This document shows positions 4,287-44,139 of a DNA stretch of 64,000 bases, in pieces. Numbering within the stretch: position 1 is the first letter of the stretch; each line of letters begins with the position of its first letter. The notes below the pieces were generated by a model. That model saw nothing but the letters and a program-made list of their open reading frames with translations, was not told the DNA's origin and did not search any database. The translations under genes and the position numbers were made by a program. The DNA comes from an uncultured Alphaproteobacteria bacterium (GTDB taxonomy: Bacteria > Pseudomonadota > Alphaproteobacteria > Rhizobiales > Xanthobacteraceae), in assembly GCA_963840055.1 (NCBI GenBank), contig CAWIXM010000045.1:79971-143970 (forward strand), given 5' to 3'.

Positions 4287-4445
4287 CGGGCGGGCGCATG
4301 GAACTCCCGGCTCATCCAGCATTTAATGAATAATCCACGTCGGCGCCGTTCAGTGCAGGTTCACCTGCGCTGGCGCAGCTTCATCGCGGGCGACGACGTG
4401 ACTAAGCCATTGAATAACAAAACGATAATATCGTATTGGGAGAGC

Positions 4446-4853
4446 ATGATGCTGGGCAAAATCTCGATTGCTGCGGCGCTCGCGGCCCTGCTGATCGTCT
4501 TCAGCGCGCCGGCCGACGCCCGCGCCGGCGGCGGGCGCGGCGGGTTCCATGGCGGCGGCTTCCGCGGCGCTGCCGTCTACCGCGGTGGATTCCGCGGCGG
4601 CGGGTTCTATCGCAGGGGTTATGTCGGGCGGCCCTTCTACGGCTACCGACGCGGCTTTTACGCGCGGCGATTCTATGGGCGGCCCTTCTATCGCGCCGGC
4701 TTCTACCGGCGCTATGGATGGCGCTACCGGCCTTACCGATGGCGCTGGCGTTACCGGCGGCCCTACTTTGCGGTGGGCTACTACGGTTATTCATGCTGGC
4801 GCTGGCGGCCGACGTGGTGGGGTTGGCGGCGCGTTTGGGTGTGCGGCTACTGA
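4446..4853 (+). CDS. secreted Gly/Arg/Tyr/Trp-rich low-complexity protein (hypothetical)
   Basis: The ATG at 4446 is preceded by GGGAGAG. The signal peptide is MMLGKISIAAALAALLIVFSAPADA. The mature part consists of RGGF/RRGY/RPFY/WRWR-type repeats with two C-terminal Cys, and a terminator follows. Confidence 0.6.
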   Translation: MMLGKISIAAALAALLIVFSAPADARAGGGRGGFHGGGFRGAAVYRGGFRGGGFYRRGYVGRPFYGYRRGFYARRFYGRPFYRAGFYRRYGWRYRPYRWRWRYRRPYFAVGYYGYSCWRWRPTWWGWRRVWVCGY

Positions 4854-6918: not shown

Positions 6919-7248
6919 CTACGTTGGAATTCCGGCGACATGAGAAGGAGCGTCATCGCGCGCGGCGCGTCGTGCCGCCCGTCTCTCCTGCCTGAACTCG
7001 AACGCGGCGCGCCCTGCTTCGCCACTTGTCAAAAGATGGGGATCCAATAACCGGCCAGTGGCCGGCCGGTCGAGCTCGGCGAGCAGCGCTCCGCGCGGGT
7101 CTGTTGCAATCGCAGCAATGCCGTCAGACCGCGGTCCGAAGCCGAAGCGGTGGAGCATCAATGCTGCATGGGTGTTGGGGTCGATTGCCATCGAAGGCCT
7201 CCGGCCTTCATCCGCCTGTCGCAAAAGCGAACCAATCGCCCCGCGCAA
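6919..7248 (-). pseudogene. DUF1800 family protein, N-terminal fragment only (about 90 of the roughly 450-500 aa expected)
   Basis: The likely start is the ATG at 7191 (MAIDPNTHAALMLHRFGFGPRSDG...), a typical DUF1800 N-terminus. The ORF stops 9 nt before the DUF1501 start, so the bulk of the gene is missing. Confidence 0.6.
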
Positions 7249-7379: not shown

Positions 7380-8540
7380 ATGGCCGCCTACGGGCTTTAT
7401 ACGCATATCCAATCCAACAAGCGCCGCTCGATCGCGCTGTTGGCGAGCCTGTTTTTGCTCGTCTACTTGCTCGTCTATGCCGGCGCGCTTGCAGGCGAAG
7501 CGCTGTCCTATGACGCTTCGCTGCAATGGCTGATGCAACGGGCCTGGCGCGATTTTCTGAGCGCGGCGCCGTGGGCGACCATCGGCGCCGTGGTGTGGAT
7601 CGTCATCGCCTATTATTTCCACCAAAACATCATCGACGCCGTCACCGGCGGCCACGCGGTGACCCGCAAGGAGGAGCCGCGCCTCTACAATCTCCTGGAA
7701 AATCTGTGCATCTCGCGCGGCATTCCGATGCCGGCGCTGAAAGTGACGCAAAGCGACGCGCTCAATGCCTTCGCCACCGGCATGAACGAAAAGCAATACG
7801 CGATCACGGTGACGACCGGCCTCCTCAGTCGGCTCGACGACGCCGAGATCGAAGCGGTTCTCGGCCACGAGTTGACCCACATCCGCAACGGCGATGTGCG
7901 CATGATGGTGATCGCCATGATTATCGCCGGCGTCGTCGCCTTCTTCGCCGAATTGCTGTTCCGGATGTGGTTCAACGCCGGCTTCGGCTGGCGTAGCCGG
8001 CGGTCGGATGACGGCGACAGCGACGGTCGAGGCAAAGGCGGCGCCGGCGCCGCGCTTCTCATCGCGGCCGTGCTGATTGGCCTCGCCTGGCTCTTATCCG
8101 CGATGGTGCGCTTCGCCTTGTCGCGCTCGCGCGAATTGCTTGCCGACGCCGGCTCGGTCGAATTGACCAAGAACCCGGACGCGATGATCTCCGCCTTGCG
8201 CAAAATCGAAGGTCGCGGCGAACTCGAAGGCGCCACCTCTGCGGTGATGGAAATGTGCGTCGACAATCCGCGGTCGGGCTTTGCCGATCTATTCGCGACC
8301 CACCCTTCGATCGACAGCCGCGTCGAGGCGCTCGTCAAATACGCCGGCGGCCATGATCCCGGCCCGATCGCACTGCCGCCGCTGGGGGAAGCTCCAGCGC
8401 CAGAGGCAGAGGCCGCCCCCGCCCCTGCTTCGGAAAACCCTGCGACCCCCTACCCCGGCCCGTGGTCAAACGGATCCGACGCTTCGACGAATGCGCCGCC
8501 CGCGCCGCCCTTGCCCGGCCCGTGGGGTCCGCACCGCTAG
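7380..8540 (+). CDS. M48 family zinc metallopeptidase (HtpX-like) with Pro/Ala-rich C-terminal tail
   Basis: HELTHIRNGD contains the HExxH motif. There are four hydrophobic segments and a conserved ATHPSIDSRV near the C-terminus. Confidence 0.9.
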   Translation: MAAYGLYTHIQSNKRRSIALLASLFLLVYLLVYAGALAGEALSYDASLQWLMQRAWRDFLSAAPWATIGAVVWIVIAYYFHQNIIDAVTGGHAVTRKEEPRLYNLLENLCISRGIPMPALKVTQSDALNAFATGMNEKQYAITVTTGLLSRLDDAEIEAVLGHELTHIRNGDVRMMVIAMIIAGVVAFFAELLFRMWFNAGFGWRSRRSDDGDSDGRGKGGAGAALLIAAVLIGLAWLLSAMVRFALSRSRELLADAGSVELTKNPDAMISALRKIEGRGELEGATSAVMEMCVDNPRSGFADLFATHPSIDSRVEALVKYAGGHDPGPIALPPLGEAPAPEAEAAPAPASENPATPYPGPWSNGSDASTNAPPAPPLPGPWGPHR

Positions 8541-8662
8541 CGAATTCCGTTCCAATCGAATCGGAATTCGCTCCGGTTGTCCCTGAGTGGTCGCATTTTC
8601 TGCGGCGAACCGGTTCCCACCCCGGATCAAGTCCGGGGCAGGCTTCGCCGGAAAATGCTCTA
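8539..8662 (+). repeat. MITE-like palindromic intergenic element, copy A
   Basis: The same sequence recurs at 44013..44139 in the same orientation and at 26805..26905 inverted and internally deleted. Module 1 is the palindrome GCGAATTCCG...CGGAATTCGC. Module 2 is the long stem GCATTTTC-GCGAA / TTCGCC-GAAAATGC capped by CCCCGGATCAAGTCCGGGG. Confidence 0.85.
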
Positions 8663-20569: not shown

Positions 20570-21523
20570 ATGAATGTCGCGCCCAAACCTTCGTTCGTTC
20601 TCCACCAGCGGCACTTGTTGGGGATCGATGGGCTTTCTCGCGAGGAGATTATTGGGCTTCTCGACCTCGCGGAGGAGTTTGTCCATCTCAACCGGCAAAT
20701 CGAGAAGAAGCGGGCGTCGCTACGCGGCCGCACCCAGATCAACCTGTTTTTCGAGGTCTCGACCCGCACCCAGTCCTCCTTCGAGCTTGCCGGCAAGCGG
20801 CTCGGGGCGGACGTCATGAACATGGTGGTCGGCTCCTCCTCCATGCGCAAAGGGGAGACGCTGGTCGACACCGCGATCACCCTCAACGCCATGCGGCCCG
20901 ATATTCTGGTGGTGCGCCATCACGCCTCGGGCGCGGTCGCCCTGCTCGCGCGCAAGGTGGATTGCTGCGTGGTCAACGCCGGTGATGGCGCGCATGAGCA
21001 TCCGACCCAGGCGCTGCTCGATGCGCTCACCATCCGCCGCAACAAGGGCCGGATCGAACGGCTCATCGTCGCGATCTGCGGGGACGTCGCCCATTCGCGG
21101 GTGGCGCGCTCGAATATCCTGTTGTTGAACGCGCTCGACGCCCGGGTGCGGGTGATCGCGCCGTCGACGCTGCTGCCGCCGGGGATCGAGCGGCTCGGCG
21201 TCGAAGTCTATCGCGACATGCGCGAGGGTTTGCGCGACGCCGACATCGTGATGATGCTGCGCCTGCAGCGTGAGCGCATGAACGGGTCGTTCGTGCCGTC
21301 CTCGCAGGAATACTTCGCCTATTTCGGCCTTGACGAGAAGAAGCTCGGCTACGCCAAGCCGGATGCGCTGGTGATGCATCCCGGACCGATGAATTGCGGT
21401 GTCGAGATCAGTTCGACCGTCGCCGACGGCGCGCGCTCGCTCATCCGCGAGCAAGTGGAGATGGGGGTGGCGGCGCGCATGGCGGTGCTGGAGGCGCTGT
21501 CGCGCAACCTGCCGAATGCCTGA
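20570..21523 (+). CDS. pyrB: aspartate carbamoyltransferase catalytic subunit
   Basis: The ATG at 20570 gives [13 protein letters not shown], the carbamoyl-phosphate site [13 protein letters not shown], then HPTQALLD and HPGPMN. The upstream part of listed ORF 19802..21523 is antisense to the ACAD gene. Confidence 0.93.
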
Positions 21524-21570
21524 GCGGACGATGTTGGCGCGCGTCCCGTGGCGTAACTAGGTGTAAGTCG

Positions 21571-22873
21571 ATGCTTTCCGACCGGCGACCGATCCTGCTC
21601 ACCAATGCGCGCATCCTCGACCCCGCCCGCGACCTCGATCTCGTCGGCGATCTGCTGATGGCCGACGGCGTGATCCGCGAGGTCAAGCGCGGCATCGGTG
21701 CGGCGGGCGTGCCGGAAGGAACGGAGGTGATCGACTGCCGCGGCAAGGTGGTCGCCCCCGGACTGACCGACATGCGGGCCTTCGTCGGCGAGCCGGGCGC
21801 CGAGTACCGCGAGACGCTTGCCTCGGCGAGCCACGCCGCGGCGGCGGGCGGCGTCACCACCATCATCTGTCAGCCCGACACCGACCCGCCCATCGACGAC
21901 CCGGCCATGGTCGACTTCGTGCAGCGGCGCGCCCGCGATACCGCGATTGTTCGCGTGCATCCGATGGCGGCGTTGACCAAAGCCCTCCAGGGCGAGGAGA
22001 TGACCGAAATCGGCCTGCTCAAGGCCGCGGGCGCGGTCGCCTTCACCGATGGGGCGAAGAGCGTGACCAATGCGCGGGTGATGCGCCGCGCGCTCACCTA
22101 CGCGCGGGACTTCGATGCGCTGGTCGCCCACCACACCGAGGACCCCGACCTCGTGGGCGAGGGCGTGATGAACGAGGGCGAATTCGCCGCCCGGCTCGGC
22201 CTCATCGGCGTGCCCAAGGCGGCGGAGACGATCATGCTCGAGCGCGACCTGCGGCTGGTTGCGCTCTCGCAGGCGCGCTACCACGCCGCGTCGCTGACCT
22301 GCGCGGAATCGCTCGACGTGCTCCTGCGCGGCAAGGAGTTCGGGCCTCGACGTCACCGCGGCCGCTTCGATCAACCATCTCGCGCTCAACGAGATGGATG
22401 TCGGCGCCTACCGCACCTTCTGCAAAGTCTCTCCGCCGCTGCGGCCGGAGGCCGACCGCATGGCGCTGGTCGCAGCGCTCGCCTCCGGCCTGATCGACGT
22501 GGTGATGTCCGATCACAATCCGCAGGACGTGGAGACCAAGCGCCTGCCCTTCGCCGAGGCTGAGCCGGGCGCGATCGGCATCGAGACCATGCTGACGGCG
22601 GCGCTGCGGCTCGTGCATTCCGGCGACATCAAGCTGATGACGCTGCTCAAGGCGATGTCGAGTCGGCCGGCGGAAATTTTAGGGCTGCCCGGCGGCAATC
22701 TGCGGCCCGGCAGCCCCGCCGACGTGATCGTCATCGATCTCGAGGTGCCCTGGGTGCTCGACCGCGAGGAACTGAAATCGAAGTGCAAGAACTCGCCCTT
22801 CGACGAAGCGCGCCTGCAAGGCCGCGTCCTGCGCACCATCGTCGCCGGCCGCACGGTATATGAGTTTGTGTGA
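21571..22873 (+). pseudogene. dihydroorotase-like protein (PyrC'/PyrX type, lacks HxH), frame broken near 22341-22347 (ORFs 21394..22563 and 22394..22873)
   Basis: Amidohydrolase fold immediately downstream of pyrB. The frames join at LLRGKEFG / LDVTAAASINHLALNEMDVG. The span of 1303 nt equals 434 codons plus 1 nt. The canonical DxHxH position reads PGLTDMRAFVGEPG. Confidence 0.8.
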
Positions 22874-23050: not shown

Positions 23051-23803
23051 ATGAACGGAAAATATTTAGCATCAACAGCCTTTGCGGCTGTCCTGGCGTC
23101 GTCTCTGCTCGCCCTGCCTGCTTCGGCTGAGAGCACGAAAAGCGCCCCCAAGCCCGCGGCCACCACCTCGGCGCCTGCCGCCGCATCGACCTCGGCGCCT
23201 GTCGCCACGGGCGACGCCAAGTCCGACGCTAGTTCTGATGCGCTGTCGATCATGCGGTATTCGCAAGACGGCAGCAGAGCCATCCGCCAAATTGGCTTGG
23301 CCCGGGTTGCGATCTTCAATGGCGACCCGAAGCTCGCCTCCGATCTGATCGCCAAAGCAAAGGCTTCCGTCGCCAAAGCCGAGCAGGAAGCGCCGACCTT
23401 CGCGGTTAAGGTGTCAGCCGTAGCGAATGGCAAGGTGGTTGGCACCGAGTCCGAAACCGGTAAAGCCCAGATGGTGCCCGTCGATGGCGATCTGGTGCTC
23501 GCCGAGGACTTTGTGCCCACGCCGGAGAAGCGTGCGCGCATCGACAAGGCCAACGAGCATTTCAAGAACGGCAGGGCCAAGGAGGCGCTGGAAGAATTGC
23601 GTCTCGGCGACATTTCGGTGATGTACACCCGCGCGTGGATGCCGCTTGCCTCGGCCACCAAGCACCTCGACCAGGCCACCAAGTTTATGGATGACCATAA
23701 GTATTACGAGGCCAACCTCGCGCTCAAGGCGATCGGCGACAGCATCACGCTGGATTCCGTGGCCATCAACGAGCCGACAACAAAGACAAAAACAAAGTCG
23801 TAA
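23051..23803 (+). CDS. YfdX family periplasmic protein
   Basis: Signal peptide present. The sequence aligns well by eye with E. coli YfdX as I recall it (ARVAIFNGDP, TPEKRARIDKANEHFKNGRAKEALEELRLG, HKYYEANLALKAIGDSITLDS). Confidence 0.8.
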   Translation: MNGKYLASTAFAAVLASSLLALPASAESTKSAPKPAATTSAPAAASTSAPVATGDAKSDASSDALSIMRYSQDGSRAIRQIGLARVAIFNGDPKLASDLIAKAKASVAKAEQEAPTFAVKVSAVANGKVVGTESETGKAQMVPVDGDLVLAEDFVPTPEKRARIDKANEHFKNGRAKEALEELRLGDISVMYTRAWMPLASATKHLDQATKFMDDHKYYEANLALKAIGDSITLDSVAINEPTTKTKTKS

Positions 23804-23848
23804 AACGATAAATTCAAAAGCCACATCGGCCACAATCCACCGTGCAAA

Positions 23849-23874
23849 AGGGCGGCGTCAGCCGCCCTCTTTCT
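23849..23874. terminator. bidirectional rho-independent terminator
   Basis: Stem AGGGCGGC / GCCGCCCT with loop GTCA. It is followed by CTTTCT on the plus strand and by TTTTGC on the minus strand, and sits between convergent genes. Confidence 0.65.
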
Positions 23875-23899
23875 AGACCCTGCGCCAGAACAGATTGGA

Positions 23900-24830
23900 T
23901 TATTGCTTAAAGCCATAGTACCGCATAGCAGCTTCGGTTAGCACGCTTGTGGCTACAGCAATTCCCACTTTCCACGTCCCGTCCGCTGCCTTTCCAATAT
24001 TTTTGGCGATCCATGCTTTCGCTCTCTTTCCAAATGGCTCCGTCTTACTCTCCGGTTCCTCCGAAACAACAATGCGGGACAATTCTTCTGCATCTGACTT
24101 CGCGATGCCTGCTACTACTAGCGCCTCAATAAATGCGTTGCCGTCGCCCTCTGATACATTTACTCGGATTATCGCGCTGTCGCCCGTATTTGAAATACTC
24201 GTATAATTGCCATGAATAATCTGCTGAGTTATTTGAGTCACTTTCTCTCCGTCTGCTGCGGGCGGCACAGCGACAGGTGGCGGCCCAAGTGTGATTTCAG
24301 CCGCCGCAGGCAGTGTCTTTTCAATTTGAATTGTTAATTCAAGCACTCTAGTGCGAACAGCGTTCTGCAATTCGGTCAGCGCAGCCTTTGAAACAATTCC
24401 AACAACGCTATTACAGGCGTAATCCTCATATACCTTACCCTGCAGCAATAAGATTAGATTAGAAGCCTCTATCTGTAGCGTTCCGCCGTTTTCCTTATCT
24501 CCGGCAACCAAGTCATCAATAGCCGCCACGCTTTGCCTTATCTCGTACTGCGTCCAATGTTTCCCAGCAAATTTTTCAATGAGATACGGCGATCGGAGCA
24601 TTACTTATTCCAGAGCCAAATGGGCCGGAAAAGGTACCTTTATAGGAAACGCCTATCTTCCGATAACTTGGAACCTCGACATCGTTAGGATATCCTTCTA
24701 ACTCGTGCTTTACCCACTCTTCGAGCACAACGCTACCAAGTCGAGAAGCGAGAAAACGAAGCTTGAGCAGAATTGGACCAATTTCACGGCCTTCCAACAG
24801 AGAAGACTGGATTTCTCGAAGCAGGCTCAC
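23900..24830 (-). pseudogene. AbiTii-domain protein (abortive-infection-like), frame broken near 24579-24598 (ORFs 24576..24830 and 23900..24601)
   Basis: The N-terminus SLLREIQSSLLEG..IGPILLKLRFLASRLGS..LEEWVKHELEGYP...VPSYRKI...GPFGSGISNAPI matches my recollection of the AbiTii N-terminal domain. GC content is clearly lower than in the surrounding genes. Confidence 0.6.
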
Positions 24831-24923
24831 AGGTGCACCCGTTCATATGGTACATAATAGCGAATCGCCCGCACCATACAACCATATCGAGCGCCATTTA
24901 TCGAATTAGTCGCTCGGTTCGCT

Positions 24924-25001
24924 CTACCGCACCAGCTCCCGCATCGCCTTGTCCAACCCCTCCAGGGTCAACGGATACATGCGTCCGGCCATCAGCTGGC
25001 G
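24924..25001 (-). repeat. relic second copy of the last 25 codons plus stop of the vWA gene
   Basis: Encodes RQLMAGRMYPLTLEGLDKAMRELVR-stop, identical in protein to 25549..25626. The DNA differs at 10 of 78 positions, and all differences within sense codons are synonymous. Confidence 0.9.
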
Positions 25002-25018
25002 TCCTACAGATGCTCGCT

Positions 25019-25309
25019 TTATGCGGCCGCTTCAACCTTGGCGGTGAACGGCACGGCGGCGACTACCGCATCTTCCGCCTGCTCGCAAAAAACAGGATCG
25101 GACCTCAACTCGTCGATGGTTCGTGGAATAGGAAAGCTTTCGCCGGTTAGCCTAGACCAATCCTCGGCCGCGAACTCCAAGACTTCAACCGCGTTTTGCA
25201 TCGCCTCGTCGATCGTGTCCCCAGCCGTGATGACCCCGGGGATGTCAGGAAAAGAGACGCCGTAACAGCTGTCACGATCTTTATGGATCAGCGCAATGTA
25301 GTACGGCAT
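25019..25309 (-). CDS. hicB: type II antitoxin HicB
   Basis: Starts MPYYIALIHKDRDSCYGVSFPDIPGVITAGDTIDEAMQNAVEVLEF, a typical HicB N-terminal domain. It lies directly downstream of hicA. Confidence 0.88.
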   Translation of the reverse strand: MPYYIALIHKDRDSCYGVSFPDIPGVITAGDTIDEAMQNAVEVLEFAAEDWSRLTGESFPIPRTIDELRSDPVFCEQAEDAVVAAVPFTAKVEAAA

Positions 25310-25320
25310 CGTATCTCCAA

Positions 25321-25515
25321 TCAGTCTTTCGGCCAGTGCGCTTGTCGGTAGATAGACCGAATTGTACCCCAGGGAATATCCTTACGCGGATGAGGAACCG
25401 TTACGACCAATCTTGATATGGGGTGTACGAATTTATGGTGCGATCCCTTCACCGCCACCAATTCGAAGCCGTCCCGCCGCAGCCGCGCGATGATGTCACG
25501 GCTGTCCCGCAACAT
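25321..25515 (-). CDS. hicA: type II toxin HicA (mRNA interferase)
   Basis: 64 aa. Contains RDIIARLRRDGFELVAVKGSHHKFVHP....VTVPHP.KDIPWGTIRSIYRQA. Confidence 0.9.
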   Translation of the reverse strand: MLRDSRDIIARLRRDGFELVAVKGSHHKFVHPISRLVVTVPHPRKDIPWGTIRSIYRQAHWPKD

Positions 25516-25548
25516 TGAAGGGCCTCCCTCAACTCACCGCCGACGTCC

Positions 25549-26724
25549 TCACCTCACCAGTTCCCGCATCGCCTTATCCAAGCCCTCCAGGGTCAGCGGG
25601 TACATGCGTCCGGCCATGAGCTGGCGCACCATCTTGATCGACTGGGTGTAGCCCCAGTGCTCCTCGGGAAGCGGGTTGAGCCACACGCAGGCGGGATAGG
25701 TGCGGGCCACGCGGTCGAGCCACACCTGCCCCGCCTCTTCGTTTATGTGCTCGACCGAGCCGCCCGGCACGACGATCTCATAGGGGCTCATGGAGGCGTC
25801 GCCGATGAAGATCACCTTGTAGTCGTGCGGATAGGTGTGCAGCACGTCCCAGGTCGGCGTGGTGTGGTCCCAGCGGCGGCGGTTCTCCTTCCACACCTTC
25901 TCGTACAGGCAGTTGTGGAAGTAGAAATATTCGAGATGCTTGAATTCGAGCCGGGCGGCGGAGAACAGCTCCTCGGTGAGCTTGATGTGCCAGTCCATCG
26001 AGCCGCCGACGTCGAAGAAGGCGAGCACCCTCACCGCGTTGTGCCGCTCCGGGCGCAGCTTGATGTCGAGATAGCCCTTGTGCGCCGTCTCCTTGATGGT
26101 GCCGTCGAGATCGAGTTCCTCCGGCGCGCCGGTGCGGGCGAACTTGCGCAACCTCCGCAGCGCGATCTTGATGTTGCGGGTGCCGAGCTCGACGTCGCCG
26201 TCGAGGTCCTTGAACTCGCGCTTGTCCCACACCTTCACCGCGCGGAAATTGCGGTTCTTGTCCTGGCCGATGCGGATGCCTTCCGGATTGTAGCCGTAGG
26301 CGCCGTAGGGCGAGGTGCCGCCGGTGCCGATCCATTTCGAGCCGCCGTGATGGGCGCCCTTCTGCTCGGCCAGCCGCTTCATGAACTCCTCGATGAGCTT
26401 GTCGAGCCCGCCCATCGCCTCGATCTGCTGCTTCTCCTCCTCGGTGAGATACTTCTCCGCGAGCTTCTTCAGCCACTCGGCGGGGATCTCGACGGTGACC
26501 GCCTCGCTCATCAGGTCGAGGCCCTTGAACACATGGCCGAACACGCGGTCGAACTTGTCGAGATTGCGCTCGTCCTTTACCAGCGTCGCGCGCGCGAGGT
26601 AGTAGAAGTCCTCGACCCGGCGCGAGGCGAGATCGGCCTCCATCGCCTCCATCAGCGTCAGGTACTCGCGCAGCGTCACCGGCAGGCCGGCGCTTTTGAG
26701 CTCATGAAAGAAGGTGACGAACAT
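25549..26724 (-). CDS. VWA domain-containing protein (CoxE-like)
   Basis: The ATG at 26724 follows GGAGAG. It starts MFVTFFHELKSAGLPVTLREYLTLMEAMEADL, has a VWA core (VLAFFDVGGSMD) and is 391 aa long. No MoxR-type ATPase gene is adjacent. Confidence 0.8.
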   Translation of the reverse strand: MFVTFFHELKSAGLPVTLREYLTLMEAMEADLASRRVEDFYYLARATLVKDERNLDKFDRVFGHVFKGLDLMSEAVTVEIPAEWLKKLAEKYLTEEEKQQIEAMGGLDKLIEEFMKRLAEQKGAHHGGSKWIGTGGTSPYGAYGYNPEGIRIGQDKNRNFRAVKVWDKREFKDLDGDVELGTRNIKIALRRLRKFARTGAPEELDLDGTIKETAHKGYLDIKLRPERHNAVRVLAFFDVGGSMDWHIKLTEELFSAARLEFKHLEYFYFHNCLYEKVWKENRRRWDHTTPTWDVLHTYPHDYKVIFIGDASMSPYEIVVPGGSVEHINEEAGQVWLDRVARTYPACVWLNPLPEEHWGYTQSIKMVRQLMAGRMYPLTLEGLDKAMRELVR

Positions 26725-26804: not shown

Positions 26805-26905
26805 AGAGCATTTTCCGGCGAAGTGGAAACCGGTTCGCCGCAGAAAATGCGACCACTCAAGGACAATTAGAGCGAATTCCGATTCCAATGGAACGGAATT
26901 CGCTC
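26805..26905 (-). repeat. MITE-like palindromic element, copy B (inverted, lacks the apical 24-nt hairpin)
   Basis: It is the reverse complement of copies A and C, except that CCTGCCCCGGACTTGATCCGGGGT is absent. It lies between the divergent vWA and yihY-like genes. Confidence 0.85.
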
Positions 26906-32468: not shown

Positions 32469-35400
32469 ATGGCGAACTATCCGAAAAAGGCCAACGACCC
32501 GACGGAGGTCGCTCTTTCGGCGATTCAAGAGGCGCTGAATATGCGGACTTCCGAGGAGACGTTCGAAGAACCGCTGCCCCCCGACAATCGCTTCGACCCC
32601 CAACCCACCGACGCCGTGCAGGACGAGCCGCACCCGCGGCTTCCCTTCAAGGATGAGCTTCCGCCGTTCCCGGCTCCGCGCAGCCGTGGCGAGGAGGCCT
32701 TGCGCCGAGCCGCCAATGACGACCGCGAGACCATCGGGCAGGTGCTGCAGTCCCTCCAACGTCGGCCGACGCGGACGCCCTACATCGTCGCCGCGCTATT
32801 CGCCGCCGCTTGGGCGATCTCGGCGCTAGGCGTCGCACTCGGCTACTGGACGGAACTGAAGAGCATGTTCGCGCAGGCGAGCGTCGCCGTACCGCTTGCA
32901 GTCGCGCTCTTGTCGGGATTCGCCGCGCCGATCCTGTTCTTCTTTGTGCTCGCGCACATGGTGGCGCGCTCGCAGGAGTTGCGATACGTCGCCCAGGCGA
33001 TGGCGCGCGCCGCCGTCCGTTTCGTCGAACCGGAATCGATCGCCAATGATTCGATCGTAACCGTTGGCCAGGCGATCCGCCGCGAAGTCGCCGCGATGGG
33101 CGACGGGGTCGAGCGAGCGGTCGCCCGCGCTGCGGAGCTCGAAGCGCTGGTCAGCAGCGAGGTCGCCGCGCTCGAACGGGCCTACGACGACAACGAGATG
33201 CGCATCCGCGGCCTCATCGACGGCATCGCCCAACAGCGCGAGACGCTGGTCGGCGAAGCCGAACAAGTGCGCAACGCCGTCAGCAATGTACATGTCGACC
33301 TGTCGCATGACATTTTCACCGCGAGCGAGATGATCAGCGAACGCGTCAACGAGCTGTCGCAACGGATCACCAATGCGCTCGCCGAAGAGGTGACGCTCAA
33401 GACCAATCAGCTCAGCGAAACGATCGTCGAAATCGCCGGCAACATGCAGGAAATGCTGGCGAGCCGTGTCACTCGGATCGCCGACGAATTATCCGAGAAG
33501 TCGTTGTCGCTGGTCGAGATGATGGAGACCCGTTCGCGCGAGATCGTCGGAACGGTGCTTGCCCAGTCGGACGCGGTCACCAATACGCTCGTCGACACAT
33601 CAGGCCGGATCACCGAGACGATCGCGAGCCGTGTCGACGAGGTGAACAACACCCTGAAAACGACCGGCGACTCGATCGTGCTGGACCTTAGCCTGCGCGG
33701 CGGCGACATCGTCGCCAAGCTGGAGGAGACCGGTGGACGCGTCACCGAATCCCTGAATGCGCGCGGCGGGGACTATACGCAGGCGCTCACCCAGAACGCG
33801 GCCGAATTGGTGGACGCGATCCAGGTGCGTGGCGACGCGACGCGCGAGATGCTGGCCGAACGTCTCGCCGCCTTTGAAGCCATTCTCACCGAAGGGACGG
33901 CCGCGCTCACCGATCGGATCGGGGTGCGCAGCGATACCGCTTACGACATGCTGGCTGAACGCCTTGCGACCTTCGAGGACATCCTCGCCAACGGCACGAA
34001 CGAGCTTGCCGACCGGCTCACCTCGCGCGGCGACGCAGTGCGCGACATGCTGGCCGAACGCCTCGCCGCCTTCGAAGCCACTCTCACCGAAGGGACGGCC
34101 GCGCTCACCGATCGGGTCGGGGCGCGCAGCGATGCCGCGTACGGCTTGCTGGCTGAACGCCTTGCGACCTTCGAGGACATCCTCGCCAACGGCACGAACG
34201 AGCTTGCCGACCGGCTCACCTCGCGCGGCGACGCAGTGCGCGATATGCTGGCCGAACGCCTGCAGACGCTCGAGGGCATCTTCGCCCATGGCGGCGGCGA
34301 CTTCGCCGAGCGGATCGACATGCTCTCCGAGCGGCTTAAGGCGTTCGAGGAGATATTCACCAAGGACGGCCGCGAGCTCGCGGAACGGCTTGGACGCGAC
34401 ACGACGACGCTCGGCAGCCTAATCACCCGCCATCTGTCCGAATTCGATCGGACCGTGAAGATCTATGGAGGCGAGCTGGTTGAGCGGATCGATCAGCGCA
34501 CGCAAGACATTAACGAGACGATGAAGGCTTATGTCGACGGGTTCGACGAGCTGATCGATGCGAAAACAAGCGAGGTCGGGGCGACGCTCGAAAGTCAGTT
34601 GGTTCGCTTCGAGGACGCCCTGGATTCGCGCACACATTCGATCGGCGCCACCTGGGCTGCGCGCGTCGCCGAAATGAGCAAGAGCGTCGGCGAGAGCAGT
34701 AGGGATGTGGTCGCGACGCTCGACAGGCGCATCAACGAGATCACTGGCATTATCGCTAGCAGCGGCACGAATTTTGTCGAGACAATCGGCGCCAGGCTGG
34801 TGGCGCTCGACAGCTCGCTTGGCGCGCATGCGAGCGACATTGCCGACGCCCTTGACGGGCGGATCGCGCGGCTCGAGGACCTGCTGATCAACCGGGCGGA
34901 GGCGCTCACAACCGGCATCGAGTCACGCAGCCAAGCGGCCGCCGATCTGTTGTTCGACCGCGCCAATTCCATCACGCGCGACATCGAATCGCGCACCCAA
35001 GCCACAGCCGACCTCCTGCTCGGCCGAGCCAACTCCGTCGCCGCCGAAATCGAGACGTCCGCGAAGACTGCAACCGGTAATCTGTTGGATCGCGCCAGTT
35101 CTGTCGTCGCCGAGATCGAGACCCGCACGCGAACCGCAGCGGATCACCTGCTTGGAACTGCCAGTTCCGTCGCGACCTCGGCCGATCAGCTCCTCAGCCG
35201 CGCCGAGACAGTCGCTGGCGACATCGAAGCGCGCAACAGAGCCGCGGGCGATCAGCTGCTTGCGCGCGCCGAATCGATCGCGAGCGAGATTGAGAACCGC
35301 ACCAAGGCGGCGGCGGCCCTGGCTATGGAGAACGCCGGTTTGATCGCAAACGATGTCGACGCCCGTGCCAAAGCGGCGACTGATCTTTTGGCCGACCGCG

Positions 35401-38400
35401 TCGGGGCGGTCATCGCCAGCGTTGAGCAGTCGACCGGGTCGGCAGCAGAAACGCTTGCCGGCCGCGTGACCCAGCTTGCCGCTGAGATCGCGAACCGCAG
35501 CGACACCTCGGCGTCGTTGATCACCAGCCGGTTCGACGAATTCGCGCGCGACGTCGAAGTCCGCAGCAATACCGCCGCTTCGTTCCTGACCCAGCGGCTG
35601 GACAGCTTCGGCACGGACATGCAGGTCAAGAGCGACAGCGCGGCCGGATTCTTGGCCGAGCGCGCCGAGACCGCGGCGCGCTCCATCGAAGAGCGCAGCC
35701 ATACGGCGATCGAGTTCTTCGTAACGCGGCTCGACACGGCGACGGACGGGGCAGAGCAACGCAGTCGATCGGCTACCGAAGGACTGGCGGGCCGTCTCGA
35801 GCAGCTCTCCGCCGCTGCTGCTACGAGCGCCAGCGGCGCGCAACAAGCGATGGAATCGCTGATCGCTCGGACAACCGCCGCGATCGATGGCAGCGCGGAG
35901 GTCTGCGAAACGCGCGCCGGCGATATCGAGACCCTGCTGCGCAGACTCGCGAGCGAGATTGAGAACCGCACCAAGGCGGCGGCGGCCCTGGCCATGGAGA
36001 ACGCCGGTTTGATCGCAAACGATGTCGACGCCCGTACCAAAACGGCGGCTGATCTTTTGGCCGACCGCGTCGGGGCGGTCATCGCCAGCGTTGAGCAGTC
36101 GACCGGGTCGGCAGCAGAAACGCTTGCCGGCCGCGTGACCCAGCTTGCCGCTGAGATCGCGAACCGCAGCGACACCTCGGCGTCGTTGATCACCAGCCGG
36201 TTCGACGAATTCGCGCGCGACGTCGAAGTCCGCAGCAATACCGCCGCTTCGTTCCTGACCCAGCGGCTAGACAGCTTCGGCACGGACATGCAGGTCAAGA
36301 GCGACAGCGCGGCCGGATTCTTGGCCGAGCGCGCCGAGACCGCGGCGCGCTCCATCGAAGAGCGCAGCCATACGGCGATCGAGTTCTTCGTAACGCGGCT
36401 TGACACGGCGACGGACGAGGCAGAGCAACGCAGTCGATCGGCTACCGAAGCGCTAGCGGGCCGTCTCGAGCAGCTCTCCGCCGCTGCTGCTACGAGCGCC
36501 AGCGGCGCGCAACAAGCGATGGAATCGCTGATCGCTCGGACAACCGCCGCGATCGATGGCAGCGCGGAGGTCTGCGAAACGCGCGCCGGCGATATCGAGA
36601 CCCTGCTGGGCAGACTGTTGTCGGATCTCGGCGGCACGCTCAAGCGCGACGCCGCCGAACTGCAGCAGCTGCTGACCACGGCATCCGCGGAGGTGAGCGG
36701 AGCGCTCAAGCAGGACGTGGCCGAAGCCGAGCGCGCGCTTGGCGAGTTCGGGTCGAGTCTGCGCATGACGTTCAAACAAGATGCGGCCGAGGCCGAGCAA
36801 CTGCTTGGCGTGGTGGTCGGCCGCCTGAGCGGCACGATGAAGCAGGAAGCGGTCGACGTCGAGCGGCTGCTGGCGACGATTTCTTCCGGACTGCGTGAGG
36901 GGATCAAGCAGGACACAGCCGCGGTGAAGAACATGCTGACCACGCTCTCCACCAGCGTCGGCGACACGCTGAAGCGGGACGCGGCGGAGGTCGAGCGCAC
37001 GCTGACCACCCTCTCCTCGGGCATGAGCGGCACGCTCCGACAGGACACGGCGGAGGTCGAGCGCATGCTGACCGCCCTCTCCTCGGGCATGAGCGGCACG
37101 CTCAAGCAGGATGCGGCCGAGGTCGAGCGCATGCTCACCACTTTCGGGGGCATGAGCGACACGCTCAAGCAGGATGCGGCCGAGGTCGAGCGCATGCTGA
37201 ACGCCGCTTCCTCCGATATGGGCAGCGCGCTCAAGCAGAATTCCGCCGATGTCGAACGCTTGCTGGCCGCCATGTCCGCGGGAATGAGCAGCATGATCAA
37301 GAAAGACGCGGCGGAGGTCGAGCGGACGTTCGCGGAACTTTCTACGCGGATGAACGAGACGCTTCGACACGACGCGGCGCAGATCGAGCGAATGCTCGAA
37401 ACCCTGTTCACCGCGATGAGCGGATCGCTTAAGCACGATGCGGCGGAGGTCGAACGGCTCATCACCTCCGTGTCGTCCGGCATGAGCAATCTGCTCAAGG
37501 AGGATGCCGCCGAGGCGAATCGCGTGCTCAGCGCCCTGTCCGCCCATATGAGCGAAATGTTGAAGCACGACACCACCGCGCTCGAACAGACGCTTGCGGC
37601 GGCCGCGGCGAACGCCAGCGGCTCGGTCAGGCAGAACGCGACCGACGTCGAGCAGAGCTTGCGCGAACTCAGCGCGGACGTCGCCCGCAATTTCGTCGGC
37701 AAGGCCGATGAGATCGTGGCCGCGGTCGAGAATCGATGCGCTGACCTCAATCGGATTCTCGACGAGAAGAGCAACAGCCTGATCAATGCGCTCACCGTCA
37801 AGGGAAGCGAATTCACCGATGGCATGACGCGAATCACCGACGAGGCGGTGAAATCGATCGAGACGAAGGGTTTCGCCTTCACTCAGACGATGGTGGACAA
37901 CAGCAATGAACTCACGCGCCTGATCACCGAGGCGAGCGTGACGGCGACCGGCGCCGTCACTCGCAACCTCAAAGAGCTGCAGGACACGTCGCGCAGTTCT
38001 ATCGGCGAATCTGCCGCCGCCCTGACCAAGCGCATGCAGGACTGGCAGGAGACGACGAGAACGACGGTCGCGCAGTCCTCCGCCAATCTGACGCAGACTC
38101 TGCACGAACTGCACGAGACGGTGCGCGCCTCCGCCGACCAGGCGATCGCCACCCTCACTCAGAAGGCGCAGGAACTGCAAGAGACCACGCACACTTCGGT
38201 CACGCAATCGACCGCGTTGCTCACGCAGAAGGTGCATGAGCTACGTGACACGGCGCATACGGCCGTTACGCACTCTACCGCCGATCTGTCGCAGCGGACG
38301 CACGAGCTGCAGCAGGTCACCCGACAGATGGTGGAGGAATCGGTCACGGCGATCACGCAGCGGATGGAAGAGCTGCAACAATCGACGCAAGGCGCGGTCG

Positions 38401-39995
38401 AGCAGTCGAAGCAGACCGGGATCGCGGCCGTCGCCGAGATTCTCGAGACGCACGGAATGCTGCGCTCCGACACGACCGCTTTGTTTGAGCGGCTGCGTGA
38501 GGCGAACGAGCTTATCCGAGAGGTTCTGAGCGGCGCGCAGGATAATCTCTTCGCGATCGAGCAAACCCTGTCTTCGCGCTTCAATCAGTTCCTCGAGTCG
38601 ATGAACCTGCTGCTGTCGCGCACGAGCTCGACGACGGACAAGGTCTCGGATGGCCTCGGGTCTTTCCAGGACATCACCGGCAAGGTGCTGAGTGAGCTCG
38701 GCGACGTCGCGATGCAGTTCGACCGTCATGGCCGTTTGCTCTCCGCCATGCTGGAACTGGTCGAAGGAACCAGCCGGCGTACCGAAGAAGCCGTAACCGA
38801 GCGGCAGCAGGAGCTCGACAACGCGGTCACCGCGCTCGATACCCGCACCGAGGCCATCGATCTGCGCCTGAAGCAGTTCTCCGGGCTGCTCGAGGAGTCG
38901 CTCGTCGCGGCGGAAGCCCGCGCGAACGACATCGTGCGCCTCGTGGCGGAGGTCAGCGCGCAGGGCGCCGACGTCATCGCCGATCACCATCAGCGGATCC
39001 GCGCCGCGTCCGACGAGGAGCGGCAACGCACGATGGAGACGCTGCACGGGGTCTATGAGCAGGCGTCGAACGAGACTCACGCGCTGTTCCAGCAAACCGC
39101 GAGCGAAGCAGAGGCCATGCTGCAGAGCGCGACCGATCGCTTCTCCGACGTATTGCAATCGGTGCGGCAGATGTCCGCCGCAATGCAGCGCGACCTGGAA
39201 GGCGCGCGCGAAGAGCTGCGCCGCGGCATTTTCCAGCTGCCGCAGGAGACCACCGACATCGTCGGCGAGTTACGGCGGGTGATCGTCGATCAGATCGAGG
39301 CGTTGGCGGAACTGAACCAGATCGTCGCCCGCCACGGCCGCAACATCGACGCCACGACGACCGAGCCGGCGCGGCGCATCTATCGCGAAGAACCCTTGCT
39401 CGCGAGCGTCAGCGGAGGACGGCATGAGGCCCCGCCGCCGCGGCAAATGCCGCCGGTGGAGCACCTCGAGCCTCCCGCCGCGCCGCCGCCGCCCCACCGC
39501 GCCGAAGCGCTTGCGCCGGAGAACGACAAGACCCGCGGCGGCTGGTTGTCCGACCTGTTGAGCCGCGCCTCTCGCGACAATGACGAGGAACCGGAGCCGG
39601 AGGAACAGCCGGCGCGTGGGGATGGGCATACGGATGAGCGTTTGGTGCGTCATACGATCGAGTCGCTCGATTCGCTCTCGGTCGACATCTCCCATATGAT
39701 CGATCACGATGCCGCCGCCGAGCTGTGGGACAGGTACAATCGCGGCGAACACAATGTCTTTACCCGGCAGCTCTACACCATTCAGGGTCAGAAGACCTTC
39801 GAGGAAATCCGCAGGCGGTATCACGCCGACCGCGATTTCAAGGATACCGTCGATCGCTATATCGATGAATTCGAGCAGCTGCTCGAACAGGTCTCACGCA
39901 ATGATCGCGGGCGGGCCGTCGCCAGCACCTACCTCACTTCGGAAACGGGCAAGGTGTACACGATGCTCGCCCATGCAGCGGGCCGGCTCGGATAG
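32469..39995 (+). CDS. giant (2,508 aa) membrane-anchored apolipoprotein-like repeat protein; growth-pole-ring (GPR)-like candidate
   Basis: This is a single open frame. Two N-terminal TM helices are followed by about 2,000 aa of Ala/Glu/Arg/Thr-rich helical repeats with 22/33/66/223-aa units, a Pro-rich linker and a unique C-terminal domain. A strong terminator lies at 40026. Confidence 0.85.
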   Translation: MANYPKKANDPTEVALSAIQEALNMRTSEETFEEPLPPDNRFDPQPTDAVQDEPHPRLPFKDELPPFPAPRSRGEEALRRAANDDRETIGQVLQSLQRRPTRTPYIVAALFAAAWAISALGVALGYWTELKSMFAQASVAVPLAVALLSGFAAPILFFFVLAHMVARSQELRYVAQAMARAAVRFVEPESIANDSIVTVGQAIRREVAAMGDGVERAVARAAELEALVSSEVAALERAYDDNEMRIRGLIDGIAQQRETLVGEAEQVRNAVSNVHVDLSHDIFTASEMISERVNELSQRITNALAEEVTLKTNQLSETIVEIAGNMQEMLASRVTRIADELSEKSLSLVEMMETRSREIVGTVLAQSDAVTNTLVDTSGRITETIASRVDEVNNTLKTTGDSIVLDLSLRGGDIVAKLEETGGRVTESLNARGGDYTQALTQNAAELVDAIQVRGDATREMLAERLAAFEAILTEGTAALTDRIGVRSDTAYDMLAERLATFEDILANGTNELADRLTSRGDAVRDMLAERLAAFEATLTEGTAALTDRVGARSDAAYGLLAERLATFEDILANGTNELADRLTSRGDAVRDMLAERLQTLEGIFAHGGGDFAERIDMLSERLKAFEEIFTKDGRELAERLGRDTTTLGSLITRHLSEFDRTVKIYGGELVERIDQRTQDINETMKAYVDGFDELIDAKTSEVGATLESQLVRFEDALDSRTHSIGATWAARVAEMSKSVGESSRDVVATLDRRINEITGIIASSGTNFVETIGARLVALDSSLGAHASDIADALDGRIARLEDLLINRAEALTTGIESRSQAAADLLFDRANSITRDIESRTQATADLLLGRANSVAAEIETSAKTATGNLLDRASSVVAEIETRTRTAADHLLGTASSVATSADQLLSRAETVAGDIEARNRAAGDQLLARAESIASEIENRTKAAAALAMENAGLIANDVDARAKAATDLLADRVGAVIASVEQSTGSAAETLAGRVTQLAAEIANRSDTSASLITSRFDEFARDVEVRSNTAASFLTQRLDSFGTDMQVKSDSAAGFLAERAETAARSIEERSHTAIEFFVTRLDTATDGAEQRSRSATEGLAGRLEQLSAAAATSASGAQQAMESLIARTTAAIDGSAEVCETRAGDIETLLRRLASEIENRTKAAAALAMENAGLIANDVDARTKTAADLLADRVGAVIASVEQSTGSAAETLAGRVTQLAAEIANRSDTSASLITSRFDEFARDVEVRSNTAASFLTQRLDSFGTDMQVKSDSAAGFLAERAETAARSIEERSHTAIEFFVTRLDTATDEAEQRSRSATEALAGRLEQLSAAAATSASGAQQAMESLIARTTAAIDGSAEVCETRAGDIETLLGRLLSDLGGTLKRDAAELQQLLTTASAEVSGALKQDVAEAERALGEFGSSLRMTFKQDAAEAEQLLGVVVGRLSGTMKQEAVDVERLLATISSGLREGIKQDTAAVKNMLTTLSTSVGDTLKRDAAEVERTLTTLSSGMSGTLRQDTAEVERMLTALSSGMSGTLKQDAAEVERMLTTFGGMSDTLKQDAAEVERMLNAASSDMGSALKQNSADVERLLAAMSAGMSSMIKKDAAEVERTFAELSTRMNETLRHDAAQIERMLETLFTAMSGSLKHDAAEVERLITSVSSGMSNLLKEDAAEANRVLSALSAHMSEMLKHDTTALEQTLAAAAANASGSVRQNATDVEQSLRELSADVARNFVGKADEIVAAVENRCADLNRILDEKSNSLINALTVKGSEFTDGMTRITDEAVKSIETKGFAFTQTMVDNSNELTRLITEASVTATGAVTRNLKELQDTSRSSIGESAAALTKRMQDWQETTRTTVAQSSANLTQTLHELHETVRASADQAIATLTQKAQELQETTHTSVTQSTALLTQKVHELRDTAHTAVTHSTADLSQRTHELQQVTRQMVEESVTAITQRMEELQQSTQGAVEQSKQTGIAAVAEILETHGMLRSDTTALFERLREANELIREVLSGAQDNLFAIEQTLSSRFNQFLESMNLLLSRTSSTTDKVSDGLGSFQDITGKVLSELGDVAMQFDRHGRLLSAMLELVEGTSRRTEEAVTERQQELDNAVTALDTRTEAIDLRLKQFSGLLEESLVAAEARANDIVRLVAEVSAQGADVIADHHQRIRAASDEERQRTMETLHGVYEQASNETHALFQQTASEAEAMLQSATDRFSDVLQSVRQMSAAMQRDLEGAREELRRGIFQLPQETTDIVGELRRVIVDQIEALAELNQIVARHGRNIDATTTEPARRIYREEPLLASVSGGRHEAPPPRQMPPVEHLEPPAAPPPPHRAEALAPENDKTRGGWLSDLLSRASRDNDEEPEPEEQPARGDGHTDERLVRHTIESLDSLSVDISHMIDHDAAAELWDRYNRGEHNVFTRQLYTIQGQKTFEEIRRRYHADRDFKDTVDRYIDEFEQLLEQVSRNDRGRAVASTYLTSETGKVYTMLAHAAGRLG
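33831..34290 (+). repeat. in-frame 198-bp (66-aa, 2 x 33 aa) tandem units within the giant gene
   Basis: Units start at 33831, 34029 and 34227 (GDAxRxMLAERLAAFEAxLTEGTAALTDR.G.RSD.AY..LAERLATFEDILANGTNELADRLTSR). Units 1 and 2 share a stretch of more than 100 bp that is nearly identical. Confidence 0.85.
35280..36617 (+). repeat. near-identical in-frame 669-bp tandem duplication within the giant gene
   Basis: 35280..35948 and 35949..36617 each encode 223 aa (ASEIENRTKAAAALAMENAGLIANDVDAR...AGDIETLL.RL). I saw about ten nucleotide differences by eye. Confidence 0.9.
36639..37691 (+). repeat. sixteen in-frame 66-bp (22-aa) tandem repeats within the giant gene
   Basis: The units have the form LK.DAAEVER.L...SSGMSGT. 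One unit is 21 aa, and the total of 351 codons fits exactly. Confidence 0.9.
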
Positions 39996-44012: not shown

Positions 44013-44139
44013 AGAGCGAATTCCGTTCCGGTGGAATCGGAATTCGCTCTCATTATCCTTTAATGGTCGCATTTTCTGCGGCGAACCGGTTCCCACCCCG
44101 GATCAAGTCCGGGGCAGGCTTCGCCGGAAAATGCTCTAG
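44013..44139 (+). repeat. MITE-like palindromic element, copy C (full length)
   Basis: Collinear with copy A. The ends CTAGAGCGAATTCCG and, on the reverse complement, CTAGAGCATTTTCCG form an imperfect terminal inverted repeat matching at 12 of 15 positions. TA/CTAG is present at both junctions. Confidence 0.85.

Follow-up and report, generated by a model that had tools for sequence, protein, structure and literature searches.

A predicted HicAB toxin-antitoxin cassette between two copies of a vWA gene end in Xanthobacteraceae resembles insertion with long target duplication

Introduction

Insertion with long target duplication has been described for restriction-modification units (Nobusato et al. 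2000, Gene 259:99; Furuta, Abe & Kobayashi 2010, PMC2853133). Addiction-type units that carry no mobility genes are flanked by long direct repeats of variable length, which are single-copy in genomes with the empty site; the duplications span tens to hundreds of bp, are sometimes imperfect, overlap the 3′ ends of genes in some cases and arise by an unknown mechanism (PMC2853133). Here we describe a comparable arrangement in a 64,000-nt stretch of DNA from an uncultured alphaproteobacterium of the family Xanthobacteraceae (contig CAWIXM010000045.1, positions 79,971 to 143,970; hereafter the window), where a predicted hicA-hicB toxin-antitoxin pair, hicAB, lies between two copies of the last 25 codons of a gene for a CoxE-like vWA protein. 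The hicAB unit contains no mobility genes, is shorter than 20 kb (the insert is 547 bp), and has repeats of more than 30 bp that align to one copy in a relative with an empty site (locus L001) and are of variable length between events. In contrast to the published cases, the cargo is a type II toxin-antitoxin module (hicAB, or a Gp49/HTH pair in the related locus L008) rather than a restriction-modification unit, the duplicate is an in-frame gene end with the host gene kept intact, the same gene end has been hit repeatedly, and the two copies show clear divergence (88.5% identity). For the duplications around restriction-modification units, suspicion has fallen on DNA cutting by the cargo as the cause. 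Neither hicAB nor Gp49/HTH is a DNA-cutting system, and double-strand breakage by the cargo therefore cannot be the cause here; a duplication around an RNA-targeting toxin-antitoxin pair argues for the host recombination machinery, not the cargo. A search of open-access text, which was not exhaustive, gave no account of type II toxin-antitoxin cassettes with long target duplication.

A second relevant process is the C-terminal displacement of Rhs, contact-dependent inhibition (CDI) and type VI secretion system (T6SS) effector-immunity modules (Jackson et al. 2009; Kirchberger et al. 2017, PMC5361080). The incoming module recombines via the conserved upstream part of the gene, brings its own 3′ end and leaves the old end orphaned downstream, for which the mechanism put forward is homology-facilitated illegitimate recombination (PMC5361080). 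The shift of the resident vWA 3′ end downstream by an incoming module would be a similar event. However, the displaced Rhs and T6SS tips are polymorphic toxin domains with immunity genes, and their displacement alters the protein, whereas both vWA ends encode the same 25-aa peptide, no immunity gene is involved, the host gene resembles a housekeeping gene, and the cargo is placed beyond the stop codon.

Islands that integrate at gene ends or tRNA genes, and cis-mobilizable elements (CIMEs), share with this locus the direct repeats of a 3′ end that flank foreign DNA, the restored gene and the empty site in relatives. Unlike them, the hicAB unit is only 0.6 kb long, has no integrase found nearby and no constant core or boundary, and is found at several target genes without shared flanks. 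Minimal mobile elements were reportedly defined by Saunders & Snyder in 2002 as alternative cassettes between conserved flanks. Such cassettes are exchanged by homologous recombination in the flanks, with no mobility genes and no duplication of the flank. The slot next to hicAB is of this kind, with an AbiTii, AbiH-like or peroxidase gene as alternative cargo between conserved flanks, a vWA-type stop codon and the terminator of a yfdX gene, but here a duplicated flank lies inside the hotspot. The term minimal mobile element is itself used in Neisseria papers such as PMC3787668. The cassette resembles HicAB type II systems in having a HicA_toxin-domain gene directly upstream of a HicB antitoxin gene, 11 nt apart; among these it is distinguished by a minimal 96-aa HicB that lacks a DNA-binding domain, by having no predicted promoter of its own and by a start 33 nt after the host stop codon. 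Taken together, the vWA/hicAB arrangement is best read as the equivalent, for a type II toxin-antitoxin module, of insertion with long target duplication, and we propose that the cassette probably inserted by homology-anchored, integrase-free recombination right at the 3′ terminus of the vWA gene. The means by which small cassettes of toxin-antitoxin or defence genes move when no mobility gene is visible are poorly understood, and the locus offers a compact natural series on this question.

Results and Discussion

A hicAB cassette between two copies of the vWA gene end

The following features, all on the minus strand, make up the locus, listed in the direction of transcription.

25549..26724, minus strand: CoxE-like vWA gene, 391 aa from the MFVTFF start, Pfam VWA_CoxE; conserved host gene, with the insertion point at its 3′ end
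25549..25626, minus strand: live vWA gene end, 78 nt, the last 25 codons plus TGA
25516..25548, minus strand: leader from the vWA stop to the hicA start, 33 nt, with a GGGAGG ribosome-binding site
25321..25515, minus strand: predicted hicA toxin gene, 64 aa; Pfam HicA_toxin PF07927, E=1.1e-20, full length
25019..25309, minus strand: predicted hicB antitoxin gene, 96 aa; Pfam HicB_lk_antitox PF15919, residues 4-77, E=8e-17
25002..25018, minus strand: trailer from the hicB stop to the inner edge of the relic, 17 nt; at the novel junction CTGTAGGA is followed directly by CGCCAGCT
24924..25001, minus strand: displaced relic of the vWA gene end, 78 nt, 25 codons plus TAG

Both 78-nt copies are direct repeats that translate to RQLMAGRMYPLTLEGLDKAMRELVR followed by a stop. 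They differ at 9/78 positions (88.5% identity): seven codons (3, 9, 11, 15, 17, 22, and 25) carry synonymous changes, none carries a nonsynonymous change, and the remaining two nucleotides are the difference between TAG in the relic and TGA in the live copy. A preliminary description of the locus, made from the sequence alone, had counted 10 of 78 differences and eight synonymous changes, which our recount lowers to 9 and 7; comparison of the two copies bears out the identical peptide, the lack of nonsynonymous change and the different stop codons that it reported. The abrupt end of similarity that it saw on the inner side holds, and the outer side is equally abrupt, with 60-nt flanks aligning at a random level. 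An independent repeat finder also reported the pair (76 nt, 91%, spacing 625). Only hicA and hicB stand between the repeats, the unique insert being 547 bp and the whole unit 625 bp, and the reading frame of the relic differs from that of hicB. The same repeat pair gives BLAST E-values of ~1e-22 in other assemblies, on which ground chance similarity was rejected. An assembly artefact was likewise rejected, because the arrangement recurs in independent assemblies (L003, L081, L082, L083, L100-L102, and Logan contigs of runs X1-X4).

The genes hicA and hicB are co-oriented, and the adjacency of a HicA_toxin gene and a HicB-fold gene 11 nt apart identifies the pair, by its domains, as a putative HicAB type II toxin-antitoxin system. 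HicB consists of the N-terminal HicB fold only, with no room for a DNA-binding domain, and has ~1,900 homologues, mostly of 96 aa, in Xanthobacteraceae metagenomes; an identical HicA protein is encoded on L081-L083. A scan between vWA and hicA limited to the sigma-70 consensus predicted neither promoter nor terminator. Because the cassette has no predicted promoter and its 96-aa HicB has no DNA-binding domain, it probably depends on read-through transcription from the vWA host gene. RNA runs contain at most 18% of the query words, probably from the vWA genes of relatives.

The empty site, the carriers and a neighbouring cargo slot

Relatives were scanned with one genome per species, which gave 80 loci with a vWA orthologue (72-98% amino acid identity in 80 species-level genomes); the heuristic picking of open reading frames (ORFs) across these loci missed low-GC genes. 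The closest relative, a Rhodoplanes metagenome-assembled genome (L001), has 96% nucleotide identity in vWA and carries the empty site: there is one gene end, no hicAB, and a peroxidase-like gene instead of AbiTii. Both 78-nt repeats of the window align to a single stretch of this locus, 7099-7176.

Seven further contigs or assemblies (L003, L081-L083, and L100-L102) carry the hicAB-relic arrangement, as do Logan contigs from four metagenomes of salt marsh and soil (runs X1-X4); it is real and circulating. The Logan contigs show assembly-graph breaks at the relic and inside the live copy, which is consistent with alternative downstream cargo and allelic variation. The relic is identical (0/78 differences) in L003, L081, L082, and L100-L102. 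L083 carries the same cassette (7/547 differences), with a leader that differs at 1 nt, and the same junction of CTGTAGGA with CGCCAGCT, which is also found in L100-L102; its relic is a different, decayed one with a 5-nt deletion, and its downstream flank is different too.

Beyond the relic lies a second variable region, with the following features.

23873..24923, minus strand: variable cargo slot with a low-GC (46-50%) AbiTii gene split by a frameshift
24576-24830 (84 aa) and 23900-24601 (233 aa), minus strand: overlapping AbiTii ORFs, covering Pfam profile positions 1-73 and 75-173
23847..23875, plus strand: terminator-like hairpin of yfdX, GGGCGGC-GTCA-GCCGCCC followed by a run of T; marks where the cargo slot ends on the right
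23051..23803, plus strand: yfdX-family gene (Pfam YfdX, E=5e-36), convergent with vWA; its conserved end is the right flank of the hotspot

The GC profile falls from 60-70% around the slot to 46-50% in the ~1 kb beyond the relic. L101 and L102, which come from one sample, share an identical relic up to its stop codon, then carry an AbiH-like gene (a weak match) and AbiTii, respectively, and rejoin at 23872; in L101, the slot holds 1.36 kb of other DNA in place of the AbiTii region, with identical boundaries. Similarity between the window and L001 also resumes at 23872, just past the yfdX hairpin. The slot thus contains AbiTii in the window and L102, an AbiH-like gene in L101 and a peroxidase-like gene in L001, and alternative cargo begins exactly at the vWA-type stop codon. 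Because L101 and L102 share the relic, differ in cargo and rejoin at 23872, the vWA-type stop and the yfdX terminator delimit the exchanged slot, and the interval between them behaves as a cargo hotspot. The AbiTii frameshift is common to carriers, the same split being called in L082 and a near-identical sequence being present in L003; the split therefore appears to be a frameshift that has become fixed, with a pseudogene or a gene in two parts as the result, rather than an error of sequencing. At the edge of the replaced cargo in L001 (8967-9174, window 23872-23659), only the last 45 yfdX codons and the terminator survive, as another stranded gene end in this hotspot.

Recombination among carriers and the origin of the two copies

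The window and L003 belong to otherwise different species-level lineages and share a near-identical block running from the middle of vWA through hicAB and the relic into AbiTii. They differ at 83/531 positions (15.6%) in the 5′ half of vWA, 10/567 in the 3′ half and 4/78 in the live copy, at none of the 547 positions of the hicAB unit or the 78 of the relic, and at 1/627 on the AbiTii side. The left crossover falls inside vWA. The near-identity of the block despite the 15.6% divergence of the 5′ half implies that it spread by homologous recombination. The live copy varies at 2-4 positions among carriers while hicAB is identical; divergence from the window is 4/78 in the live copy vs 0/547 in hicAB for L003, and 4/45 vs 7/547 for L083. 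A Fisher test of the live copy (4/78) against hicAB, relic and AbiTii together (1/1252) gave p=5e-5.

Which copy is native was assessed against L001. The live copy differs from it at 9/78 positions, against 41/1098 (3.7%) in the rest of vWA (Fisher p=0.004), and the relic at 6/78 (p=0.12). The last 15 nt of the relic match L001 and L002 except for the stop codon, whereas the window-type carriers share an unusual GAA..AGG TGA in the live copy, where L083 has CGG TGA. In the carrier consensus, the live copy is L001-like at codons 3 and 11 and the relic at codons 15, 22, and 25; these informative sites, only five in number, would fit a single reciprocal crossover located between codons 11 and 15. 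The comparison weakly favours the view that hicAB may have come with a foreign gene end and that the relic is native. The earlier proposal that hicAB arrived with its own replacement 3′ end is thus plausible insofar as the last ~30 nt of the live copy look foreign, and weak in that the contrast is one of 9/78 against 6/78.

The opposite polarity, in which the relic is the newcomer, is distinctly unlikely in our judgement. It would make hicAB an older resident after vWA, next to which an AbiTii block arrived from a hicAB-less donor by homology on the yfdX side and an illegitimate join after hicB, bringing along the donor's vWA end as its truncated left arm. Purely synonymous divergence fits this history equally well; a position 6-33 nt directly after vWA is the commonest context of this HicB family (L012, L020, and L092-L098); the relic, AbiTii and the yfdX side are co-inherited nearly unchanged in the window, L003, L082, L100, and L102; and L083 pairs a different relic with a different downstream flank. 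Yet the closest relative, L001, has no hicAB, its gene end is nearer to the relic than to the live copy, and the unusual last 15 nt are those of the live copy. Moreover, L101 has the same relic with different cargo, and the identical inner junction of L083 is not expected from independent arrivals of different blocks.

Recurrence at the vWA gene and at a helicase gene

Second copies of the vWA end were searched for, and contexts of HicB homologues were sampled, which gave the following further cases.

L097: duplicate of about 147 nt (137-148), from codon −49; hicAB between the copies
L106: duplicate of 107 nt, from codon −37, beginning 14 nt after an orphan hicB; insert of ~2 kb, no hicA
L098: 37-nt relic, from codon −28, overlapping the hicB stop, with CGCAT/GGCAT microhomology; hicAB
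L008: duplicate of about 147 nt, from codon −49; Gp49-family toxin/HTH antitoxin pair on the opposite strand
L084-L086: end of a UvrD-type helicase gene, 186-nt duplicate (90% identical), from codon −62, after hicB; hicAB

In addition to the empty site and five insertion types (window/L083, L097, L106, L098, and L008), the natural series includes another kind of cargo, another target gene and spread between species by recombination. Repeat length varies by event (37, 78, 107, ~147, ~147, and 186 nt). The inner boundary lies at about codon −25 in the window and L083 and at the approximate codon positions listed above in the further cases; no constant crossover core runs across the events. The distance from the hicB stop to the relic is 17 nt in the window, ~24 in L097, 14 in L106, 0 in L098, and 50 in L084, and that from the host stop to hicA is 6-33 nt, except for 137 nt at uvrD. 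In L012 and L092-L096, hicAB lies 6-28 nt after vWA with no detectable relic. The HicB of L084-L086 is 79% identical to that of the window, and in all contexts identity to the window HicB stays at 75-79%; divergence of HicB in step with vWA was looked for and not seen, and vertical inheritance of the linkage could not be shown. The suggestion that this gene end is a reusable docking site is supported by the Gp49/HTH pair in L008, the hicB inserts with other relics in L097, L106, and L098, and the alternating AbiTii, AbiH-like and peroxidase cargo. A purely synonymous signature, on the other hand, is not general: the duplicates of L008 and L084 carry nonsynonymous differences, with 10 nonsynonymous and 9 synonymous in L084-L086. 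Diverged gene-end relics of this sort could serve in annotation to mark the insertion of integrase-less cargo.

The copies in L097 show a single difference in their last 75 nt, and the outer parts are near-identical in L106 and L008 as well. In L097 and L008, the inner part of the duplicates is far more diverged than the outer part, a contrast that suggests repeated recombination within the repeats. Near-identical outer parts and the demonstrated frequency of vWA recombination would also suit a duplication made in place by template switching or unequal sister exchange, with the divergence introduced by later allelic replacement or gene conversion. For the window pair, seven codon differences that are all synonymous have P ~0.04-0.05 if the copies diverged in place with one of them unconstrained, which is suggestive, not overwhelming, evidence against such divergence; at P ~0.04 the pattern is only mildly improbable under an in-place origin. 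Nor does it force the earlier conclusion that the copies evolved in separate lineages, since later allelic replacement of either copy gives the same pattern. Duplication in place is nonetheless highly improbable in our estimation, as it leaves unexplained both the arrival of hicAB in a lineage whose nearest relative has none and the occurrence of the same cassette with other relics.

Several further sequences turned up in these searches. A 13-aa match resembling the vWA end in L006 (E=1.8) was dropped as unsupported at the DNA level. Other diverged direct repeats were sought in ~1.1 Mb of the collected loci, and those of L007 and L025 were inspected and rejected as gene-end duplicates, being dispersed elements like repetitive extragenic palindromes (REPs) that flank small genes: a P-loop kinase-like gene in L007 (4139-4237/4805-4903) and a methyltransferase-like gene in L025 (3515-3627/4390-4506), each lying between diverged copies of a REP-like element and assigned by translation only. 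These are repeat-flanked mini-inserts of another type in the same genomes. L106 contains a second diverged direct repeat (1473-1792 and 4421-4738; 320 nt, 90% identity), which covers a small minus-strand ORF downstream of vWA and is nested with the vWA-end duplicate; it seems that two successive insertions with long target duplication took place there. In L012, where the relic is absent, a 169-nt tandem repeat (7986-8154/8160-8328; 98.8%) lies a few hundred nucleotides downstream of hicB. Genes other than hicA precede hicB in L004 (7227-8165; an unknown ~188-aa protein), L107 (2502-3291; a DUF29 protein), and L106 (1973-3321; a TctC-family protein), which suggests toxin replacement or orphan antitoxins. 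A Gp49/HTH toxin-antitoxin pair comes right after hicB in L004 and L098. At L089/L103/L108 (3765-4350), the hicA-hicB pair precedes a DUF188 gene, after which come another HicB-like (or fused HicA-HicB) gene and, further on, a RelE/HTH pair, the whole toxin-antitoxin module cluster adjoining a gene for a major facilitator superfamily (MFS) transporter.

Search for an integrase, a tRNA target and att-like sequences

The preliminary description had noted that no integrase is visible, and none was found in the unit or among the Pfam-identified genes from ~15.5 kb to 32 kb, a region in which several ORFs have no Pfam match. The identified neighbours are AidB-like, PyrB, YfdX, AbiTii, BrkB, GDSL-like and pyridine-nucleotide reductase genes, all but AbiTii of housekeeping type. 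No tRNA or transfer-messenger RNA (tmRNA) gene occurs in the 64-kb window, and a target of that kind was rejected on this ground; Rfam gave no match at E<=0.01 in 20-31 kb. Pairwise BLAST and inspection of leaders and trailers over nine contexts revealed no conserved cassette ends: cassettes from different contexts have ~68% nucleotide identity over the hicAB coding region only, and leaders and trailers are unrelated. An integron gene cassette was also considered and rejected, as the 17-nt trailer and 33-nt leader are too short for an attC site (at least ~55 nt), no conserved or structured flank recurs across contexts and the neighbourhood has no integrase.

These results bear on whether hicAB could be a CIME-like site-specific element without its own integrase, mobilised in trans, whose repeats are the attachment sites attL and attR with a core at the inner boundary. 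Such elements classically show direct repeats of a gene's 3′ end by which the gene is restored, the empty site exists in L001, and the window and L083 share an inner junction but differ in relic bodies and flanks, as expected if attR is the core plus the recipient end. We nevertheless regard this origin as very doubtful. No integrase was found within ~10 kb and no tRNA in the window; at one and the same gene, duplicates have different lengths and boundaries from event to event; a relative of the cassette lies at another gene, uvrD; neither a flank nor a hairpin is conserved, and the leader and trailer are too short to hold a site of attC or attP type; and the supposedly element-borne live copy varies among carriers far more than hicAB does (L003 and L083; Fisher p=5e-5 for 4/78 vs 1/1252). 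The analogy with tRNA- or gene-end-integrating islands drawn in the preliminary description is not supported, for the same reasons, namely the lack of a nearby integrase, a tRNA in the window and shared flanks and the variable inner boundaries, and also because the divergence profiles show ordinary homologous-recombination crossovers inside vWA.

Proposed homology-anchored insertion without an integrase

In the insertion that we favour, the entering DNA would have carried the donor's last vWA codons next to the promoter-less hicAB. It may have been a small circle that integrated by a single Campbell-type crossover or a linear piece with a homologous join on the vWA side and an illegitimate join on the other. 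By either route, vWA would stay intact and the resident gene end would be pushed downstream as a dead 78-nt relic, with no dedicated recombinase and only host recombination acting on short homology. Later spread between related Xanthobacteraceae would proceed by homologous recombination with crossovers inside vWA (double crossover), in which the relic could supply a second, right homology arm. The configuration of L083 fits the relic as a right arm; it fits a fixed-core model as well. We favour host recombination over a site-specific integrase because the boundaries vary, no recombinase or conserved flank accompanies the cassette, the L098 junction shows microhomology, crossovers fall inside vWA, two different genes serve as targets, and the cargo does not cut DNA. 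The data show the structure of the locus, the empty site, recurrence at varying boundaries, the divergence mosaic and the lack of a nearby integrase or att-like sequence. The molecular route (circle or one-sided join), the identity of the native copy and the co-transcription of hicAB with vWA are what we infer from these patterns. The mechanism of hicAB insertion is testable with simple constructs.

Several observations weigh against homology-anchored insertion. No donor sequence, circle or excision product was seen, and no excision or empty-site joint skipping the 625 bp was present in the Logan contigs of the four metagenomes, contigs that drop rare variants. The assignment of native and foreign copies depends on one relative, 96% identical, and on very few sites, and the relic, too, differs from L001 at 6/78. 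The right junction always falls 0-50 nt after the hicB stop, even in L106, which lacks hicA; random breakage should scatter this junction, and its constancy may point to a more specific process. The inner boundary is exactly the same in L083 and the window, as a fixed recombination core would give, and the inner-diverged duplicates of L097 and L008 are not predicted by a simple single event. Most of the loci are, moreover, metagenome-assembled contigs.

A bolder possibility, which we consider unlikely, is that the duplicated gene end is no scar and instead forms the working part of an integrase-free mobility device. The live and relic copies would provide a pair of homology arms or, once excised as a circle, a single one, so that RecA alone could insert the cassette into any genome with that gene. 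Cargo could be swapped, hicAB and Gp49/HTH both being found between repeats that begin at codon −49, and carried to further genes such as uvrD, while a specific process, such as copying of a read-through transcript or break-induced copying, might set the right junction at the hicB stop. If the duplicated end does work in this way, the 25-year-old puzzle of long target duplication gains a cargo-independent mechanism.

Other features of the window

Beyond yfdX lie a pyrC-like gene and then pyrB, and the opposite side of vWA is occupied by BrkB-family, GDSL-like and reductase genes. The pyrC-like (dihydroorotase-like) gene has one extra T at ~22340, GGAGTTCGGG vs GGAGT-CGGG in L100 and L001, which divides it into ORFs 21394-22563 and 22394-22873; confined to the window sequence, the extra base marks either an assembly error or a recent pseudogene. 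An intergenic element of ~100 nt at 26805-26905 ends in the palindrome GAGCGAATTCCGATTCCAATGGAACGGAATTCGCTC and has three copies in the window (also 8538-8569 and 44014-44045). Its depth in metagenome contigs is ~31,000, vs ~20-40 around it, and loose ends are numerous where it borders other sequence. Rfam gave no match for it, and it resembles a very abundant dispersed repeat of the REP or miniature inverted-repeat transposable element (MITE) kind. A 2,508-aa ORF at 32469-39995, which contains long arrays of tandem repeats (units of 66 nt and 99 nt) and an internal duplication of 300 nt at 99% identity, probably encodes a large repetitive surface or secreted protein.

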